From Octopus sinensis (lineage: Eukaryota): a stretch of 9,914 bases of DNA. The stretch is taken from positions 1 through 9,914 of the forward strand of contig NW_021827684.1 in NCBI RefSeq assembly GCF_006345805.1. Reading direction: 5' to 3'. Both the position numbers and the translations under genes were made by a program. Positions within the stretch are counted from its first letter, which is position 1. Each line of letters starts with the position of its first letter. The notes beneath the pieces were generated by a model. The model was not told the DNA's origin and did no database searches. It saw only the letters and a list, made by a program, of their open reading frames with translations. Shown here piece after piece: positions 1 to 9,914 of this stretch.

Positions 1-215
1 TACCTATCTATCTATATCTATCTATCTAGCATTATCTATCTATCTACTATCTATATAGCTATCTATCTATCTATCTATTTATCTATCTGTCTATCTACCT
101 GTCTGTCCTGTCTGTCTGTCTGTCTGTCTGTCTCTCCGTCTGTTTATATTATTTCTATATTTATCTATATCAGTGTTTCTCTGTGTATCTGTCTCTCTGC
201 CTTTCTGTCTCTCTG
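1..215. repeat. Compound (TATC)n to (TGTC)n tetranucleotide microsatellite, degenerating into TC-rich sequence
   Basis: Read directly: tatctatc... switches to ctgtctgtc... around position 90-130. Confidence 0.95.
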
Positions 216-456
216 TCCGAATGTGTGTACGCACGTGTTAACGTTGTTCTTTTTCTTTTTCTTTCTTTTTTCTTATTTGTATCTATATACACACGCGCGC
301 ATGTAGACATGCACCCCCATTATTACGTTCATTTTGTGCTGGTTCAACTGAGAAAAAATTACTTTGGTAACCATGCCTTAATTCTTGCCGTGATTTTGTG
401 CAAGTTTTCGAAGGCAATTAATTTTCAGTTCGTTCAATCATATATAAAGAGAGTGA

Positions 457-528
457 TATACATACATACACACACATACATACACACACATACACCACAC
501 ACACATACATACATACATATATATATAT

Positions 529-595
<67 letters not shown>

Positions 596-615
596 TATAC
601 ATACATATATATATA

Positions 616-693
<78 letters not shown>

Positions 694-704
694 TATTATA
701 TATG
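457..704. repeat. (CA/TACA)n followed by long (TA)n microsatellite
   Basis: Read directly. It produces the YIYI/HTHT pseudo-ORFs. Confidence 0.97.
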
Positions 705-1650
705 CATATCTGGCACAGGACGTCACGAAAGTGTACAACAAAAAATTCGAATCACGAGTACATGGAACATGAACTAATGGAAAACAAAACAAACAACATA
801 AAGAACGACCCTTCATCAGTTGTCTGTTTTTCTAGTCTCGTATTTCGAGCATTTAACAACAATATACGCTTTCGATAAAACAGGTGCTCCCGCAAAGCAA
901 ATTAAATAATATTTAGGATTTTTGCGGAGGGGCAAAATTGGTAACATAAACAGGACAGTGAAATTAAACAGGAAGTGCTGCTAAGCCTAATCGAAGTAGT
1001 GGTGGCAAACGCGTAATTCAAGCTCGGACAGGAGACGAACAAGAACACGTCTTCCTTGTTCCAGCTACAACGGAGAGAAAGAAATACAAGTTAAGAGAAG
1101 AAAGAAATATGGCCGATGGTCTCGTGGGAGCCACGTAAGCTAGGGAGGAGGAGTGAGGGAGAGAGAGAGAGAGTGACAGAGTAATAGGATAGAATAGTGG
1201 GAGAAGAGGAGGTAAAAGAATAAGATACAAAGGCAAAGAATTCACGAGAAAAATAATTCTTGAAAAATGAATTTACTAAGATATAATTAATCTTGTTATT
1301 ATCTGGAATGACTATTTTAAAAAATTATAAAAACCGAATCAATGATATAGGCGACGCAGACGCGAGAAAAGCATTAAATAGCGGAAGGATTAAAATTAAT
1401 CAAAGGACATACAAAGTATGTCTACCTACTGGAAATAAAAGCCAAAACTCATATTTAAATCGCCAAAATACATTGATAATAACTACAAATCAGGTTAATA
1501 AAATCTCCCAACGTACATTTAAGTATTTGGACTCACGTGGACCGGTTTCTGCACTGGTAAAAAAAATCGCCTTAGCTCCTTCAGATTCCACGATATTTGA
1601 TTTATTTTACTCCATAGCAAGATTGCTGAATTTCCTCTCGCCAAATAAAT
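705..1650 (-). mobile_element. Probable Penelope-like retroelement 3' end (decayed endonuclease C-terminus plus pLTR/3' region) abutting (TA)n
   Basis: Minus-strand translation of ~1650-1530, allowing frameshifts, reads IWREE-x-SAILLWSKINQISWNLKEL..FYQCRNRST*. This resembles the Penelope GIY-YIG tail (LC..EK..I...LN.R.E...CRH). The downstream region carries a hammerhead core at 808-868, and hammerheads are typical of Penelope pLTRs. Family assignment is inference. Confidence 0.45.
808..868 (-). ncRNA. Candidate rearranged (non-circularly permuted) hammerhead ribozyme, copy 1
   Basis: Minus strand: CGUAU-A-UUGUU-guuaaau-GCUC-GAA-AUACG-agacuagaaaaaca-GACAA-CUGAUGA-A-GGGU. Stem III is CGUAU/AUACG, stem I is UUGUU/GACAA and stem II is GCUC/GGGU. 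The AUA triplet is at 865-863. Confidence 0.6.
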
Positions 1651-1663
1651 AAATATGCAATAT

Positions 1664-1832
1664 GGGCACGGGGGGTAACTGTATGGTGAGAAGCTTGCAG
1701 CTTGCAACCCAATCATATGGCTGTGGTTTCAGTCCCATTACGCAGTACCTTCGGGTAAGTGTCTTTTGTTATAGCCTCGAATTTACCAAAGCTTTGTGAG
1801 TTGATTTGACAGTCAGAACTGAAAGAAGACTA

Positions 1833-1837
<5 letters not shown>
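1664..1837 (+). mobile_element. tRNA-derived SINE, 5' half (family A head), diverged
   Basis: Aligns by eye with 6423-6583 and with the reverse complement of 2370-2522. Degenerate B box ggtttcagtccc. Ends in ctgaaagaagactatcgta before (CA)n. Confidence 0.85.
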
Positions 1838-1871
<34 letters not shown>

Positions 1872-1890
1872 TGCACACATATATATATAT
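1837..1890. repeat. (CA)n/(TA)n microsatellite
   Basis: Read directly. Confidence 0.95.
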
Positions 1891-1899
1891 TATTCTTTT

Positions 1900-2060
1900 T
1901 TTTCAGTCATTTGATTGCGGCCATGCACAGCCGTTAGTCGAATAAATTAAACCTAGGACTTATTCTTTGTAAGCCTAGTACTTGTTCTATCGGACTCTTT
2001 TGTCGAACCGCTAATATATGGGGACGTAAACACATCAACATCGGTTGTCAAGCGATGCTG
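1900..2060 (-). mobile_element. SINE family A, 3' half
   Basis: Highly similar to 6265-6422 (cagtcatttga.tgcggccatgc ... ggacttattctttgtaagcctagtactt ... ggggacgtaaacac ... catcggttgtc). Confidence 0.85.
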
Positions 2061-2260
2061 TTGTTTTTCTAAAAATCTTTTTTCGTTTTTTTAATGGATT
2101 GACACGATTTCTATGTAAAAAAAAGTCATTGATTAAGTATAGTCATGCCTCGCTGCTTTTTGGTTATGTCGCCAATGATTAGGCTCGATTTAAAAAAAAC
2201 AATGCACACACATAAAGGAGGTGCTATAGTACTATTCCACAGCCATACCAACAATCCAAC

Positions 2261-2322
2261 ATGCCCCCATCATCAGCTGCCCTACGGATATCATTATGGT
2301 TTCGACACCTGGGCAGTACCAT
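2261..2322 (-). ncRNA. Candidate rearranged (non-circularly permuted) hammerhead ribozyme, copy 2
   Basis: Minus strand: AUGGU-A-CUGCCC-aggu-GUC-GAA-ACCAU-aaugauauccgua-GGGCAG-CUGAUGA-U-GGGGGCAU. Stem III AUGGU/ACCAU and stem I CUGCCC/GGGCAG are both perfect. The GUA triplet is at 2319-2317. Stem II is short. Confidence 0.65.
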
Positions 2323-2369
2323 TCAATCCGGCAGTGTCAACAGCACTAAAATAAGTGTTGATTGGGAAC

Positions 2370-2522
2370 ACGACAGGCTTCTTTCATTTTCCGTCTACCA
2401 AATCCACTCACAAGGCTTTGATCGGCCCGAGGCTGTAGTAGAAGTCACTTGCCCAAGGTGCCACGCAGTGGAACTGAACCCGACACCACGTGGTTCGGAA
2501 GTAAGCTTCTTACCACACGGCC
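2370..2522 (-). mobile_element. tRNA-derived SINE, 5' half (family A head)
   Basis: Reverse complement matches 6426-6583. It has an A-box-like ggccgtgtggtaag and B box gggttcagttcc. Confidence 0.9.
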
Positions 2523-2523
2523 T

Positions 2524-2558
2524 CACATACACACACAGACACGCAGACACACATACTC

Positions 2559-2590
<32 letters not shown>

Positions 2591-2611
2591 GTACACATAT
2601 ATACGCACACA
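2524..2611. repeat. (CA)n-rich microsatellite
   Basis: Read directly. Confidence 0.95.
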
Positions 2612-2692
2612 AGATGGCCAAAAGCCACGCACAAAATAAGTTTGATACGCTTGGGAATTGTCAAAAACACTCTTCAATTTTTTAAAAAAGAA

Positions 2693-2758
2693 TAAAATAA
2701 AATAACAACAACAACAACAACAACAACAACAATAATAATAATAATAATAATAATAATT

Positions 2759-2796
<38 letters not shown>

Positions 2797-2854
2797 AATA
2801 ATAATAGTAATGATGATGATGATAATAATAATAATAATAGTAATGATGATGATG

Positions 2855-2900
<46 letters not shown>

Positions 2901-2972
2901 TAATAATAATAATAATAATAATAATAACGTAATATATATATAATGTTAAATACGTGTATATATATATATATA
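2693..2972. repeat. Compound (AAC)n-(AAT)n-(GAT)n trinucleotide array followed by (TA)n
   Basis: Read directly. It includes a repeated higher-order unit (gat)n-(aat)n-agt-aat. Confidence 0.97.
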
Positions 2973-2979
2973 AACATAG

Positions 2980-3160
2980 ATTTTTTTTATAAGCGTTGCA
3001 ATATGTATTGTACGATACAAATAAGCTTATAGTTTTTCGAACGCAGAATTTACGTTAGAACAGTAGAAATACTTACAAAGCTGAAAACTTGTTAACACCC
3101 ATGGGACTCGCACCCACATCCTAAATGTTTTGGCTCGTGACTTTTGGTCCATCCTCTATA
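2980..3160 (-). mobile_element. Possible old tRNA-derived SINE (degenerate head, A-rich tail)
   Basis: The minus strand has a T-arm/B-box-like gtgggtgcgagtcccat (3117-3101), one mismatch from GGTTCGAGTCCC. It lies ~40 nt after an A-box-like tagaggatgg, and there is an A8 run at 2988-2981. Confidence 0.3.
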
Positions 3161-3162
3161 CA

Positions 3163-3415
3163 TATGTGTGTATGTATATATGCATGCATGTTTGTGTGTG
3201 TGTGTGTGTGTGCGCGCGCGCGTGTTTGTGTGTGCGTGCGTGTGTTATGTTTGGTTCTCACCGCTGCTTGAAAACCGGTTTTTTAAAATTTTTTTTAAAA
3301 TAAGTGCTGCGGGGATCGAGTTGATTTGTTTGACTAGAATCCGTCAACACAATGCTCCAGCGTGGCCACAATGCAATGACTCTCGATCAAACAGAAGTAA
3401 AAGATTAAAAGATTA
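3163..3415 (+). mobile_element. Diverged SINE family A 3' half with its internal (TG)n
   Basis: (TG)n is followed by gcttgaaaaccgg ... ttgatttgtttgactag ... tgctccagcgtggccacaatgcaatgact ... gtaaaagattaaaaga, the sense version of 6248-6422. Confidence 0.75.
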
Positions 3416-3477
3416 CTAAAATTTTAAAGCAAACAGCGTCACTGCTGAGATTAGAGATTTGTATTAGTTGATATTTT

Positions 3478-4460
3478 AGAATAGAGGATTGTATAGAGAA
3501 GGAGATAACTCCTAGCATACCACTTCTGAGGAATATTCATGAAAGAATGTTGCAGGCTGCACTGAGTGAGAAAGTGATCAGTGACGATGGTGAGACCCTC
3601 CAGGAGTACAATATAAGGATTAATAGAGAAAAGATCATCAAATGCAAAGAGAAAGTCATATACAGTGAGTTGTTTCTTTAGCAAACATCAGATGAAGCTG
3701 ATGAAGAATCCTGGAAACGATTAAAGCATGTTTTTTTTTAAAGAAGGGGGCAAAAGGACTGATTGTTGCTGCTCAAGAACAAGTTTTATGAACCAACTCA
3801 GTCGGGAATAGCATTGATAAGACAGCAGTATCACCTTTGTATAGATTATGTAGAAAGTCATCCGAGACAATTGGACATATGATCAGTGGATGCTAAAAAC
3901 CGACCTAAAAGGAGAACAAAAGCACCATGACAAAATGGTAGTGCAAATACACTGGGAGTTGTGCGGGAATTATGGGCTAGAATGTTCCAACAAATGGTAT
4001 GAGCACCAACCTTTGCCAGTAGCAGAGAATAATCAAGTGAAACTCATACGGGATAAACGAATATACACAGACAAAAAGCTGTGACACAACCGACCAGATA
4101 ACACTGTCCTACGTAAGGAATCCAAAACAACGGACCTTCATCAACGTAGCTTTACCTGCAAACCAGAATATTGTGAATACAAAAAAAAAAAGAAAGGAAG
4201 TCGAGAAATACCAAGACCTAGCATAGGAAGTGAAATGCATCCATAGAGACTCAAAAGTAAGTGTGGTATCTATTGTGATCAGTGCACTTGGGACCATCTC
4301 AAAGAAAGCAATGTTCTGGCATCAAAAGCTACAGATACCAGAACTTAGGAAGTATTTTCAGTTGGCAGCAGTACTTGGAACAGCTCGTTTGTAGAAAAGT
4401 GTTGCATCTCTAAGCTGTGGGAGGGGAGCTGAGATGTGACATAGATAACTCAGGAGAAGA
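3478..4460 (+). mobile_element. 5'-truncated, decayed R4/Dong-clade non-LTR retrotransposon (post-RT region, CCHC knuckle, restriction-like endonuclease, short 3' UTR), copy 1
   Basis: Translation across stops and frameshifts: RIEDCIEKE..LLRNIHERMLQAALSEKVI..QTSDEADEESWK..GLIVAAQEQVL*TN..(Y)RLCRKSSETIGHMISGC..HHDKMVVQIHWELCGNYGL..WYEHQP..NRPD..VEKYQDLA..VVSIVISALGT..LGTAR..KVLHL* (stop 4411-4413). Followed by taataa. Confidence 0.9.
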
Positions 4461-4466
4461 TAATAA

Positions 4467-4512
<46 letters not shown>

Positions 4513-4514
4513 AA

Positions 4515-4564
<50 letters not shown>

Positions 4565-4612
4565 CAACAACAACAACAACAATAATAATAATAATGATAA
4601 TAATAATAATAA
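4461..4612. repeat. Compound (CTA)n-(AAT)n-(AAC)n-(AAT)n microsatellite between two Dong-like copies
   Basis: Read directly. Confidence 0.97.
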
Positions 4613-5645
4613 TATGTACCAAGAAAAAGGGGGAAGAGAACTTATTGGATGCGAACACAGCTTTAGAGCAAAAGAAAACAACATAGCATAGGATGTAAAA
4701 AAATGCCACATAACCGTTAATATTAGAAGTAGGAAGGTCAGGTTTGTGTAGGATGAAAGATTGCAAAGATAAAGCATTATACAAGCAACTGAAAAAAAAA
4801 ATGAAACTGAAAATAGGTGGGTAAAGAAAATAATGCATGGACAATTTCATAGGGAAGTTGAAGATAAGACAGTCAGAAGAAAGGTGGCTGTGGATGACTA
4901 AAGGTGATTTAAAATCGGAAACGGAGGCTCTAATCTGTGCTGCCCAAGAGCAAGCACTAAGAACAAACTACATAAAATACAAAATAGACAACACAGCAGA
5001 AAGTGATAAGTGCAGAATCTGTGGAAAAAACGGTGAAAGCGTATGGCATATTACCAGCCAATGTACGCCACTAGCCCAAAAGGAATATAAGAGACACCAC
5101 GACAATATAGCCAGGCTTGTCCATTGGACACTTTGCAACAAGTATGGACTTGACAGAGCAAAAAATTGGTACGACCACAACCTGAAAATGTCGTCGAAAA
5201 TAGAAATGCGAAGATCCTATGGGATTTTGATTCAGTGCGACAATGAGATTGAGAATAGGAAGCCGGACATAGTCTTATTTGAGAAAGAAAACAAACTATG
5301 CTGGATCATAGATATAGCATGCCCAACAAGGTATGTGATAAGGAAGAAAGAAAAGTTGAGCGATATGACAGGTTAGCTTGGGAGGTTAAGCAGTTGTGGT
5401 TAATGAAAATGGTAGCAGTAGTACCAGTAATTGTTGGAGCCCTGGAAACAGAGAAAAGATCTTGAGAAATACGTGGAACAAATAAGGACTGCAATAAGGG
5501 TTGAGCACTTGCAGAAAACAGTACTGCTTGGAACCGCTCGAATACTCCGGAAGGTGCTCGAAAAATAAGAGGCGTTATCTTAGTTCATTGGTAGTGAACA
5601 GCTGACACTGTAGTACATCTCCAGCGTTAGAAGCTGTGCAAAGGC
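4613..5645 (+). mobile_element. 5'-truncated R4/Dong-clade non-LTR retrotransposon pseudogene, copy 2 (different subfamily, better preserved)
   Basis: YVPRK-GGRELI..MHGQFHRE..WLWMTKGDLKSETEALICAAQEQALRTN; CCHC knuckle CRICGKNGESVWHITSQC; HHDNIARLVHW; RLE core RKPDIV...IIDIACP...KVERYDRL; VVPVIVGAL; LQKTVLLGTARILRKVLEK* (stop 5566-5568). Flanked on both sides by (AAT)n. Confidence 0.93.
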
Positions 5646-5702
<57 letters not shown>

Positions 5703-5708
5703 CATAAT
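5646..5708. repeat. (AAT)n tract at the 3' junction of Dong-like copy 2
   Basis: Read directly. Confidence 0.97.
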
Positions 5709-5812
5709 CCTTTCTGAACTTTCTGGTTTTCGTCACTGGTTACCAATTATCTTTAAAAATTTTCAACGTATCATATAAATATAAATTTGAATTTGAATTG
5801 GAATTTTTTTAT

Positions 5813-5921
5813 TCACACACACACACCACACAACACACACACACACACACACACAACACACACCCACACCACCCACACACACACCACACACACACACACA
5901 CACTCACACACACACACACAC
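5813..5921. repeat. Imperfect (CA)n microsatellite
   Basis: Read directly. Confidence 0.95.
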
Positions 5922-6247
5922 AAATCAAAAATTCACACACCTCACCTCCGTTTTACATTTACACACATATACTCATACAGAGTTGAAATGTCCCTACAAT
6001 CATTTTGCCATTACCCCTTCCTTCCTTATTCATCTATCACCCCTTCCTTTCTCATTCATATGCTGTGACGGAGAAAACCACAAGAGTATTACTATAGAAG
6101 ATTATCTTTCTCGTATCTCCTTCCCCTCTTTGTGTGCATGCGCAGCATCTATGGTAACTATGGAAACAGAGGTCTTCGCCACGGTGATGTGTAAAGTACT
6201 CACTTTTGATTGGCTAAAATACCCAAAGTTTGCAAATTTTAAAGGCA

Positions 6248-6422
6248 CTCTTTTACTCTTTTACTTGCTTCAGTCATTTGACTGCGGCCATGCTGGAGCA
6301 CCGCCTTTAGTCGAGCAGATCGACCCCAGGACTTATTCTTTGTAAGCCTAGTACTTATACTATCAGTCTCTTTTGCCGAACCGCTAAGTTACGGGGACGT
6401 AAACACACCAGCATCGGTTGTC
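6248..6422 (-). mobile_element. SINE family A, 3' half with (gtaaaaga)n tail
   Basis: Matches 1900-2050. The tail reads ctcttttactcttttac on the + strand. Confidence 0.9.
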
Positions 6423-6597
6423 GGAGTGGCTGCATGGTAAGTAGCTTGCTTACGAACTACATGGTTCCGGGTTCAGTCCCACTGCGTGGTACTTTGGGCA
6501 AGTTTCTCTTCTACAATAGCCTCGGGCCAACCAAAGCCTTGTGAGTGGATTTGGTAGACGGAAACTGAAAGAAGCCCATCGTATGTATATATATATA

Positions 6598-6628
<31 letters not shown>

Positions 6629-6653
6629 TTGAGTGTCTGTGTTTGTCCCCCAA
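6423..6653 (+). mobile_element. SINE family A, 5' half (tRNA-like head, internal TA/TG repeat), inverted relative to its adjacent 3' half
   Basis: A box-like gtggctgcatggtaag and B box gggttcagtccc. Homologous to 1664-1837 and 2370-2522. Confidence 0.9.
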
Positions 6654-6788
6654 TAATTTTTTAATTATGGATTTGTAGGAAAAATGAATTTTATTTTCAT
6701 AATTAGTATACAAGACGTAATCCATATACCAAATTTGAAAAGAGTTGGAGCAAGATTGTAAACAGTGATGCAAACCATGAAAATCCCT

Positions 6789-7003
6789 CCCTTCTAGCAT
6801 AGGCACAAGGCCTGAAATATTGGGGAGGGTACTAGTCAATTAAATCGATCCAGTATTTCACTGGTACTTAATTTATCAAACTCCCGAGAGGAATGAAAGC
6901 AAAGTCAACCTCGGCGGAATTTGAACTCCGAACGAAGCGACGGGCGAAATACCGCTAAGCATTTCGTCCCAGCGCGCTGACGATTCTGCCAGCTTGCCGC
7001 CTT
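6789..7003 (-). mobile_element. Second tRNA-derived SINE family, near full length
   Basis: The minus strand starts aaggcggcaagctggcagaatcg (A box-like) and has B box gagttcaaattcc. It continues gccgaggttgactttgctttcattcc...gataaattaagtaccag, resembling the conserved central domain of Nin/Deu/Meta-type SINEs (from memory). Confidence 0.85.
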
Positions 7004-7062
7004 AATAACAACGACGACAACGACGACGACAACGACAACGACGACAACGACGACAATAATAA
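7004..7062. repeat. (GAC/AAC)n trinucleotide repeat with aat ends
   Basis: Read directly. Confidence 0.9.
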
Positions 7063-7213
7063 GCGAATTAAATCCGCAGTGAATAATGAACATCGTAGAC
7101 GTGTGTCAGCGAACTTCCTTTGAGGGAAGGTGAAATCTGAGATCATCGCCAAGCAGGTTTTAAGAAACCGCAAAACAATGTAAGAAAATTATGTTTTAAT
7201 GTGAAGTCATTTG

Positions 7214-8194
7214 GGCGATCTTTCGTCTCTAGTACACCTTTCCGTCGATTTCCGTAAAAATTTTTTTTTTTACATATGGGCTTGCGGGAACTTTTGAAGT
7301 AATATACATACATATACATATACACATACACCGAGTAAAAAATTTCAGTTATCTCTTTCTTTCACACATTACTTCTGTATCTTCACACACACTAACAGAA
7401 GCACTTCACTTACACAACATACTGTCTGTCTCCCACACCCCATCAAACACACACACACACACACACATGTACATCAATGCTCCCATGCACGGTAACTTCA
7501 AAAGAACTTCCCTCATCATACAATCGCTTTCTCTTAGTCACTTTCGCTCTCATTACTTTGTAGTGATCCTATAACGGCGCGCGCTCGCGCACCGCCCATT
7601 TGTATTTCGCGCGTGTTGGTGCCTTTACCAAGGCAGAGAGAGGAAGGGCCCTCTCGCGCATGCGCGAAGCACCGGAAGAAGAACCCTTTTGCCTACGTAG
7701 CAGTTAGCCGAGGCAAGGGGGTCGTAAGACGTTGACCACCAGCGTCCAGCAGCAGCGGCGACTTGGGACGGCAGCGATTGAAGGAGACGGTCACGCATAT
7801 TTTCTCTCCGTTCGAACTTGCTTCTAGCAGTCCTTACCAAAAGGCCTTTAACCTGGATTGTTGCAGACATCATCTTCTTCCTCCTGACGCCATTTTGACC
7901 CGTTCTGTTTTTGGCGGCTGAACATTGTAAATATTACAATCGATTAACTTTCAGCCTTGCGCGCCCAGAACCAAGGACATCAGATAACACACTTATTGTT
8001 ACTGTTACCAAGAAAGAGAATCTGGATTATTAAAGCAACGGCTAGTGATTGCCTCTTGCACCCCAAAAGTGCAAGAGAAGATACACTCACTAAGTTCGTT
8101 ACAACTTCAAAAGTTCCCGCAAGCCCATATGTAAAAAGAAAAAAAAAATTTTACGGAAATCGACGGAAAGGTCTACTAGAGACGAAAGATTGCC
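7214..8194. mobile_element. Non-autonomous DNA transposon with ~87-91 bp TIRs
   Basis: 7214-7300 (ggcgatctttcgtctctagtacacc...gggaacttttgaagt) is the reverse complement of 8104-8194, with 2 substitutions plus differences in the A/T runs. Flanking direct repeat aagtcatttg at 7204-7213 and 8198-8207. No transposase ORF is visible. Confidence 0.92.
7570..7920. promoter_or_regulatory. CpG-rich promoter-like segment inside the TIR element
   Basis: Marked GC/CpG enrichment relative to the flanks. Perfect palindrome tcgcgcatgcgcga at 7654-7667 (NRF1-type GCGCATGCGC), ETS-type accggaag at 7671-7678, YY1-type cgccattttg at 7888-7897. Confidence 0.5.
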
Positions 8195-8586
8195 GTAAAG
8201 TCATTTGAGGAAACCAAAAGATTTCTTTCATATATGAAGTATCCAAAGTATAGTTTCTCCCAGATGCGTTTCTCACAGCAAAACATGCGTGAAAGAGTAA
8301 ACAACATAAACTGCGATATCCGTATACAACAGAACTGAGAACAAAACTGTGAGTACAAGAATTAATCACATATGCATTCCTATTTCTACATACATGCACA
8401 CTGCTGTTTTTCACTTATACATCAACAAATATGTTTATACAATTCACACTCGAACACGTACGAGCTTCTTTATACGCGTGAACAAAACAAACATCGAACG
8501 CACGGTGTTTAAATGACTTTAACAAAAGATACAACAAACTTCATTTTAAACAGTGTAAAGGAGCAGTTGTACTCGGTGACGAAGCT

Positions 8587-9460
8587 ATGAAGAAGAAAGC
8601 AATAGAGGGTGAATTTCGTTCTGCAAGCCTCGGGCGATCGCGATACGAAAGAAGCCGTAGCATACGTTCAGGGACGGTGCTTTGTCAACACATTAACGCT
8701 GTAAATATGGACCTATCTTTTAATGTCACTACCCAAAACGGACAACAAAGCCAGAAGAGAACGATGGACCGATGACGACTACCTTGAAGTGATATATGCA
8801 TTCTACAATGCAGCACTATACCCAAAACGGATCTTTTCGCTTTGACCGGCAGATTTTTAAAATAATTTCTTTGTAACTAAACACTTTTAAACTTCGTATA
8901 CTGGTAGAATGTGTTTTATAAAACATCTTTTTCTCTTGGCTTTCTTGAGAAAATTCTGCAGTTTGTAAGCTATTTGTTCTTTAATTTCTTGCATTTCGGC
9001 AATTTCAACCAATCAATGACGTCTATTGAGGTGAATTCAATTTCAGCCGGAAAATGTTGTTGCCAGAAAATGTTGTTGACAACGATCCGGCAGAAATTGA
9101 ATTCACCTCAATAGACGTCATTGATTGGTTGAAATTGCCGAAATGCAAGAAATTAAAGAACAAATAGCTTACAAACTGCAGAATTTTCTCAAGAAAGCCA
9201 AGTGAAAAAGATGTTTTATAAACACATTCTACAAGTATACGAAGTTTAAAAGTGTTTAGTTACAAAGAAGTTATTTTAAAAATCTGCCGGCAAAAGCGAA
9301 AAGATCCCCCAAAACACACAGGAATAATAATAAAAAAAAACATGAGATACGGAAGAAAAATAATAAAAGTATAAGGAAAAACAAAATACTATTTCAAATG
9401 TCCGACGATACATGATAGAGAAGGGAAAGTCTCCAAAACCGAAATAGACAAATTCCTACT
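8587..9460 (+). pseudogene. Decayed N-terminal region of an R4/Dong-like ORF, interrupted by the MITE
   Basis: 8723-8828 reads MSLPKTDNKARRERWTDDDYLEVIYAFYNAALYPK. After removing the MITE and one TSD it continues, with frameshifts, HEIRKKNNKSIR..SNVRRYMIEKGK-VSKTEIDKF. This resembles the R4/Dong N-terminal pattern R..WT.E....V..C/AYY...YEIW....LANVRR.I....L...E. Recognised from memory; start uncertain. Confidence 0.6.
8829..9307. mobile_element. Foldback MITE: ~222-bp inverted arms, 34-bp spacer, 8-bp TSD cccaaaac
   Basis: 8829-9051 is the reverse complement of 9086-9307 with about 7 differences. Termini are ggatcttttcg...cgaaaagatcc. The sequence cccaaaac is at 8821-8828 and 9308-9315. Confidence 0.97.
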
Positions 9461-9700
9461 GTAAATATTCAATAAAATTAACAACGCTGTCACACACACA
9501 CACACACAACATGTACCCTACAGGTCGGATACCAAATAGAACACAACTCTCATTACACACATAACACACAATACAAACACTAATACAACAAAAGACTCGG
9601 GGAAGAGTTTGTACTCCCCCCACCCCAAACCCCACAGTGCTGCACACACAGATAACAGAAAGTGACACAGTAGAAATTTACCTGAAAGCATCAGATGTCG

Positions 9701-9721
9701 AATAATAATAATAATATTATT

Positions 9722-9812
<91 letters not shown>
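9701..9812. repeat. (AAT)n microsatellite
   Basis: Read directly. Confidence 0.97.
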
Positions 9813-9914
9813 GACCTCTACTGTAGGAATGAACAGTAGAATGAACAGTACCTATCTAGTACAAAGGACTGGATGCTGCGACTTGTGTGCGAACACGAAA
9901 GCAACAAAAGCTGC
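9811..9914 (+). mobile_element. Start of a further 5'-truncated R4/Dong-like copy inserted in (AAT)n, running off the window
   Basis: KTSTVGMN-[12-bp duplication gaatgaacagta, frameshift]-YLSSTKDWMLRLVCEHESNKS resembles the post-RT segment K...IGL..YL....DWML.LV..HE. It begins directly after (AAT)n. Confidence 0.6.

Follow-up and report, generated by a model that had tools for sequence, protein, structure and literature searches.

Known scrambled hammerheads and Penelope-like elements

The hammerhead ribozyme was split into three blocks, S, G, and C, by Eckert, Friedrich, Weinberg, and Weinberg (2023; PMC10085705; this and the other papers cited were available to us in part), who described the HRIMA-1 motif and variants of type SGC. 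Cleavage of type SGC was shown in vitro, all of stems I, II, III, plus a further I-II helix being required, and in the available text the published examples come from metatranscriptomes only, none of them from genomes of known organisms (PMC10085705). Types CSG-1 and CSG-2 are known from two metagenome sequences (PMC10085705), and a paper of November 2026 mentions the 2023 SGC work just in passing in the portion available (PMC13725137). Ribozyme permutations that are not circular had previously been seen only in RNA of unknown origin and in two metagenome sequences, with no biological role known.

Minimal type I hammerheads were reportedly found in 2014 by Cervera and de la Pena in the pseudo-LTRs of Penelope/Poseidon elements. 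Naiads are described as lacking canonical hammerheads in the available parts of Craig, Yushenova, Rodriguez, and Arkhipova (2021; PMC8557442), where 18 of 54 Naiad families are flagged (10 as “HHR_core” and 8 as “HHR_half_core”) with no structure given. Our literature search, which covered few subscription journals and no bioRxiv supplements, turned up no earlier account of an SGC or CSG hammerhead, either from animals or from Naiads.

Here we analyze a stretch of 9,914 nt from Octopus sinensis (contig NW_021827684.1, positions 1 to 9,914), all of which is referred to as the window. The reading that we consider likely is that two loci in it are SGC hammerheads near the 3' end of Penelope-like retroelements, the autonomous Naiad in the case of locus 2 and a non-autonomous, retrozyme-like family in the case of locus 1.

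Two scrambled hammerhead motifs in the window

A sequence-only reading of this DNA had pointed to two minus-strand motifs, at 868-808 and 2322-2261, in which the hammerhead core occurs in an order that it called Z-Y-X, and had interpreted them as a retroelement-borne family of rearranged hammerheads. That order is S-G-C, thus the topology is not new but is the type SGC published in 2023 (PMC10085705). When the window was searched with a descriptor covering all six block orders, as that reading had proposed for Z-Y-X, both loci were recovered as the only SGC matches and zero matches of other orders were found, including the canonical circular ones (CGS, GSC, and SCG). No match of any order appeared in 300 dinucleotide-preserving shuffles. 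The blocks are as follows.

858-868, minus strand: locus 1 block S (stem III strand 868-865, U16.1 at 864, H17 = A863, stem I strand 862-858)
839-850, minus strand: locus 1 block G (stem II strand 850-847, GAAA 846-843, stem III strand 842-839)
808-824, minus strand: locus 1 block C (stem I strand 824-820, CUGAUGA 819-813, extra A at 812, stem II strand 811-808)
2311-2322, minus strand: locus 2 block S (stem III strand 2322-2319, U16.1 at 2318, H17 = A2317, stem I strand 2316-2311)
2296-2305, minus strand: locus 2 block G (stem II strand 2305-2304, GAAA 2303-2300, stem III strand 2299-2296)
2267-2282, minus strand: locus 2 block C (stem I strand 2282-2277, CUGAUGA 2276-2270, extra U at 2269, stem II strand 2268-2267)

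Both copies have a complete core (CUGAnGA, GAAA, UH, A15.1-U16.1, and G10.1-C11.1), and the cut is predicted 3' of A863 in locus 1 and 3' of A2317 in locus 2. The spacings given earlier are correct (16 and 13 nt from H17 to GAAA, Y-to-X linkers of 14 and 13 nt, for loci 1 and 2, respectively), as are the NUA triplets at both loci and the extra nucleotide after CUGAUGA (A812 and U2269). Two details needed revision. Stem I of locus 1 (UUGUU/GACAA) does pair, but it has been shortened by a copy-specific 3-nt deletion, the stem I of the family having 6 pairs, and the GGG after CUGAUGA is present in the locus 2 copy yet is specific to it, the family majority being GGAGG. Stem II of locus 2 consists of 2 pairs (G-C and G-U). 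The insertions at both loci of the window are old, and these copies may be silent themselves.

The expectation that descriptors of types I-III would miss such motifs was borne out. An Rfam search of the window, at E values up to 10, found no hammerhead (the sole matches were microRNA-like noise from repeats), and the descriptors of the Naiad paper had found no canonical hammerhead in the elements described in its available text (PMC8557442). A tRNA search of the window found none. The same reading had pointed to a reported precedent for rearranged hammerheads in Xenopus, which was not found in our literature search.

Host elements of the two motifs

Each motif is placed near the 3' end of an abundant repeat, with at least 2,075 candidate copies in the genome for the repeat of locus 1 (family B) and at least 1,669 for that of locus 2 (family A). 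Both families have a fixed 3' end that runs into (TA)n and ragged 5' ends resulting from 5' truncation. Partial tandems and inversions are seen as well, and in all these features, including the position of the fixed 3' end at microsatellites, both families are like Penelope-like elements. In the window, the relevant features are these.

505-703, no strand: (TA)n microsatellite that borders the family B copy at its 3' end, a typical insertion target
706-1225, minus strand: 5'-truncated family B copy with locus 1 (unit about 890 nt, with partial tandems and inversions)
887-930, minus strand: hairpin upstream of locus 1 block S
2214-2370, minus strand: 5'-truncated family A copy with locus 2, the 3' end (3' UTR end) of a Naiad

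Family A matches the 3' ends of Naiad_Obim and Naiad_Ovul when compared by eye with the published consensus sequences (file S5, PMC8557442). Its long copies carry a decayed reverse transcriptase (RT) gene, with the motif about 850 nt downstream of it; RT motifs A, B', and C lie in decayed frames upstream of the family A 3' end in two extended copies (L130 and L145), where Pfam RVT_1 is matched at an E value of 8.5e-4, with a score below the Pfam cut-off. The N-terminal GIY-YIG endonuclease and the CxC and DKA motifs were not reached in seven extended family A copies, all of them 5'-truncated or decayed, and among 99 matches there was no intact Naiad ORF, the best open frames being at most 320 aa. 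These sequence comparisons identify locus 2 as the 3' end of the published octopus Naiad, a Penelope-like element. The proposal that the motifs are borne by retroelements is thereby upheld, in that both loci lie in high-copy retroposon families and one of them is the end of a published Naiad, and the interpretation as a whole (retroelement-borne rearranged hammerheads) is supported. Incidentally, one of the extended family A copies (L145:3064-3303, minus strand) contains a second retroelement protein fragment upstream of the Naiad remnant, to which Pfam gives no support; judging by its motifs, we take it to be Penelope-like.

Families B, C, and D are made up of non-coding units, about 750-890 nt long, that are present as partial tandems and inversions. 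The long family B copies contain no coding frame, and the non-coding tandem unit of this family, with one hammerhead in each, is a retrozyme-like trait. The fixed 3' end of the window copy lies about 155 nt downstream of the predicted cut, and family C has a hairpin that by eye is similar to the one at 887-930. Families B and D are 73% similar, similarity between B and C is weak, and outside the motif none of the three has sequence similarity to family A, so that the Naiad is only a candidate as their specific mobilizer.

Other repeats occur in the window. SINE-like abundant repeat copies are present at 1670-1830, 1890-2060, 2370-2520, and 6250-6580, and one of these adjoins the 5' junction of locus 2 at 2370. 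Two decayed LINE 3' fragments on the plus strand (3480-4420 and 4680-5600) each comprise a zinc-knuckle region followed by (TAA)n and presumably resemble R4/Dong-type elements. Nested near-perfect inverted repeats at 8829-9307 (137 nt at 99% and 88 nt at 95%) are MITE-like, and inverted arms seen by eye at 7200-7330 and 8090-8200, flanking about 800 nt of GC-richer sequence, are possibly a DNA transposon derivative.

Copies across the genome

SGC cores occur in about seven families of this genome. Two exact patterns for blocks G and C only had 1,988 and 1,675 matches (at least 3,663 together), with 0 for the reversed-pattern controls. Loci chosen on the GAAA and CUGAUGA blocks alone, with no pre-filter for pairing, were examined for a block S in the right place. 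Among the first 30 loci for each pattern, 21 and 17 have an upstream block S that completes stems I and III, whereas the downstream counts are 0 and 2 of 30, and distant windows gave 2 and 1 of 150. A looser pattern brings in families F-H (L417-L429), in which 10 of 14 matches complete an SGC core and some members have a CUGAAGA variant and a stem I of 7-8 pairs. Its 19,008 matches (control, 139) are unusable as a copy number, about half of them being family E; by eye, the first 100 comprise 51 of family E, about 45 of SGC type, and 4 that are unclear.

Across families B-D (15 sequences), compensatory changes are found at 3 of 5 pairs in stem III and 3 of 6 pairs in stem I, and further ones are seen when family A is added in a block-anchored table, although the rows used for pair counts were pre-filtered for pairing and come from related sequences, and so are not independent. 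The “full covariation” claimed from the two window copies holds for stems I and III but not for stem II (see below). At the 11 core positions, variants number 16 of 396 in family B (413 of 4962 outside the core), 7 of 555 in family C (401 of 6793), and 21 of 449 in family A (406 of 3933), so core variation is about half of that in the flanks or less, the flanks including low-complexity runs. The catalytic nucleotides and NUH triplets are all kept across families, and the extra nucleotide after CUGAUGA is present in 133 of 133 intact copies (A in 96, U in 34, C in 3), under a filter that required this spacing. On the strength of block S completion above the controls, compensatory changes, and low core variation, these alignments indicate that the motif is under selection and not accidental.

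It might be argued that short motifs were juxtaposed by chance, or that the cores are debris of type I hammerheads, amplified passively with the repeats. Family E (L410-L416) gives this some substance. This repeat, which is of very high abundance, has a minimal type I-like hammerhead in canonical order, with a 6-pair stem II in 4 of 7 members and a stem III that is short and palindromic. Another GAAA stands upstream of the core, SGC pairing occurs in 0 of 7, and the family inflates the loose counts. However, the shuffles gave no matches, independent families keep the pairing with different sequences, and Naiads of other phyla show the same handedness (see below). Owing to the compensatory changes, this explanation is effectively refuted, and we consider it very improbable.

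Stem II, the fourth helix, and folding

The short stem II is a weak point of the structure. In families A-D, 2-4 pairs can form, changes are one-sided only, and the pair tables show no compensatory change. For the I-II (fourth) helix, duplex energies give no support; a candidate, picked by eye on the same sequences on which it was then scored, is 76% paired with both-side changes at 4 of 6 pairs. A competing hairpin is possible in family B, between block C and the tail. Single-strand folding z-scores (+2.1, -1.8, -0.5, 0.0, and +1.8) are unremarkable, from a method that cannot show three crossing stems.

These features bear on the possibility that the motifs are real hammerheads that cut only as dimers, in tandem transcripts, or with the help of the element protein, like the minimal type I hammerheads of other Penelope-like elements. 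The short stem II, a I-II helix that is only a by-eye candidate, and the presence of the elements as partial tandems and inversions would all suit it, and dimer cleavage of Penelope hammerheads was reportedly described by Lunse et al. in 2017. Protein assistance has been proposed for the Poseidon hammerhead (PMC11167929). On the other hand, stems I and III here have 5-8 pairs and are not palindromic hairpins, and dimers are not demanded by the SGC topology, because published SGC ribozymes, whose S-to-G linkers are about as short, undergo cleavage while being transcribed (PMC10085705, in the text available). We regard dependence on dimers or protein as unlikely and retain folding in cis as the preferred reading.

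Insertion 5' ends and the predicted cut

If element RNA is cut at the predicted site, the 5' ends of insertions may record it. Copies were collected by a 3'-terminal anchor alone (96 of 652 for family C, 70 of 70 for B, and 70 of 143 for A) and their 5' ends mapped against the predicted cut, with references containing an inversion or microsatellite left out. In families B and C, 128 copies were at risk, and 32 of these (15 of 52 in B and 17 of 76 in C) have their 5' end in the 25 nt on the 3' side of the cut. The 25 nt on its 5' side hold 6 of 96 ends (Fisher p = 2e-4), and the 25 nt that follow the first window in the 3' direction hold 4 of 132 (p = 1e-7); the junction background is 63 of 1262 (5%). 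Of 301 sliding windows, the best has its start at -1 relative to the cut. A replicate anchored on blocks G and C (56 copies after removal of three duplicates and one family A copy) gave 9 of 54 vs. 5 of 214 (p = 3e-4). In families B and C, about three quarters of arrivals at the cut read through. In family A, no pile-up reaches significance (7 of 56 compared with 2 of 49; p = 0.17; 8% background). In two copies (L079 and L258), internal deletions have one end at or beside the predicted cleavage site.

The pile-up in families B and C is as expected from cleaved templates and suggests them, with transcription start or RT stalling as the alternatives. Because the junctions are spread over 0 to +23 (about 24 nt) instead of sitting precisely at the cut, this reading has to assume trimming or joining by microhomology.

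The same data could be read as a core that is a conserved but non-cleaving RNA signal, such as a protein-binding or RT-positioning fold, with the pile-up marking a transcription start or an RT stall. The pseudo-LTRs of Penelope-like elements hold the transcription start (PMC8557442), and the dispersal of the junctions, the absence of a pile-up in family A, and the squid and coral Naiad consensus motifs with no paired stem II (see below) would fit such a signal. Yet the onset of the pile-up is within 1-2 nt of the predicted scissile bond, and the catalytic nucleotides and NUH triplets are kept in all families. A stall is also difficult to place, in that an RT coming from the 3' side has stems I and II already open at this point, and the preceding 25 nt have a low end rate (the 4 of 132 above). 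A non-cleaving signal seems to us improbable, a little more so even than a requirement for dimers, and cleavage by SGC hammerheads is the reading that we carry forward.

Naiads beyond this genome

Of the 54 published Naiad consensus sequences, 53 were inspected by eye over their last 200-290 nt, together with motif matches (file S5, PMC8557442). Clear scrambled cores were recognized in 14 of the 54 families, and none in the examined part of the others. Complete C-S-G cores are present in seven nematode families (three from Nippostrongylus and one each from Haemonchus, Heligmosomoides, Ascaris, and Pristionchus), with stems that are fully paired, sequences that differ, and I-II helices of 7-16 pairs. 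Another seven families have S-G-C cores, namely two from octopuses, one from a squid, three from corals, and one from a spider, and a ctenophore Naiad has a weak one; in those of squid and corals, stem II is unpaired. The spider element, Naiad_Smim, has a long hairpin between blocks S and G. In this selenoprotein-encoding Naiad, the hairpin may be what is annotated as a SECIS element.

Circular permutation converts SGC, CSG, and GCS into each other. A single rearrangement, with later circular permutation in tandem elements, would therefore account for both forms, and the shared handedness suggests that SGC and CSG derive from one scrambled ancestor. We also considered whether the SGC form arose from a decayed upstream type I copy, given that family B has another GAAA upstream of its block S, and no tandem trace supports this. 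The broadest form of the proposal is that scrambled (odd-handed) hammerheads are the ancestral and active Naiad ribozyme, that one non-circular rearrangement was subsequently permuted in a circular manner into SGC (cephalopods, corals, spider, and perhaps ctenophore) and CSG (nematodes), and that cutting occurs in vivo, the cut site being fossilized in the 5' ends of thousands of insertions. We see the case for this extended version as evenly balanced. If true, non-circularly permuted ribozymes would be among the commonest ribozymes of many invertebrate genomes.

Several molluscan Naiad families seem by eye to carry other structured RNAs. In the mussel and clam elements Naiad_Mgal, Bpla, Mphi, Scon, and Mmer, a 3' motif resembles, as we take it, the twister ribozyme. 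Naiad_CGi, Sglo, Olur, Tgra, Pmar, Skow, and Pfla (oyster, ark clam, and hemichordate) have in common a conserved 3' motif of about 60 nt, which is a candidate self-cleaving RNA because it is placed where other Naiads have a ribozyme.

A model for the elements

We infer that SGC motifs self-cleave after H17, and propose the following sequence of events. The transcript of a tandem element would fold in cis, the three mutually crossing stems rebuilding an ordinary hammerhead core, and the folded RNA would then cut after the NUH triplet, releasing unit-length RNA. The element RT would start within this RNA at a point 100-260 nt downstream of the cut, using a nick in (TA)n DNA; internal initiation of this kind at AT-rich nicks has been demonstrated for a Poseidon element (PMC11167929). 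Where the template is linear and cut, the RT would run off at the cut and leave short copies, and on uncut or circularized RNA it would read through, leaving long copies and partial tandems.

The ribozyme of the autonomous Naiad is probably slower, with its 2-pair stem II and no pile-up. This would fit the need for an uncut or circular template, because cut linear RNA cannot in this way give a copy with the ORF. In vitro, insertion of a Poseidon element does not need hammerhead cleavage (PMC11167929, in the portion available), so the role of the ribozyme may lie more in processing RNA than in insertion.

Significance and comparison with known systems

These results place scrambled hammerheads in animal chromosomes, in thousands of copies, and in a named retrotransposon clade. 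SGC and CSG cores would answer the question of why Naiads seemed to have lost the hammerhead, and the families supply many natural covarying sequences for structural and kinetic work. Comparing insertion 5' ends with a predicted cut offers a genome-only route to the open question of whether Penelope-element ribozymes cut in vivo. In practical terms, all six block orders are needed in repeat annotation and ribozyme searches.

Compared with type I hammerheads in the pseudo-LTRs of Penelope/Poseidon elements, the SGC motifs occupy the same place in the terminal repeat and likely have the same task in tandem-transcript processing, but the former have the canonical circular order C-G-S with no crossing stems, whereas the stems here cross (PMC11167929). 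Animal non-LTR retrozymes resemble families B and C in being non-coding, tandem, hammerhead-bearing, non-autonomous, and Penelope-linked, and differ in having a type I hammerhead and a unit of about 170-400 nt, against type SGC and about 750-890 nt in mostly partial tandems (PMC7229834; 10.64898/2026.07.22.740005). The element of locus 2 is like the published Naiads in its (TA)n targeting, 5' truncation, tandem and inverted insertions, and decay in cephalopods, whereas the scrambled block order itself is absent from the available part of the Naiad description (PMC8557442).

The closest relatives are the published SGC ribozymes, with which the copies here share the S-G-C order, the full core, three crossing stems, and a short S-to-G linker, and, in the case of SGC-1 and SGC-3, the extra nucleotide after CUGAUGA (PMC10085705). 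In the available description, the published forms have a 5-pair stem II immediately followed by the required I-II helix, compared with 2-4 pairs and a helix candidate only in the octopus, and they come from metatranscriptomes, whereas here SGC is DNA-encoded in retroelements (PMC10085705). Type CSG has the same handedness as SGC and was absent, by the six-order descriptor, from the window and the fetched loci. Judged on block order, core, and stems I and III, the octopus motifs are members of type SGC, and what is new is the variant and its host context.
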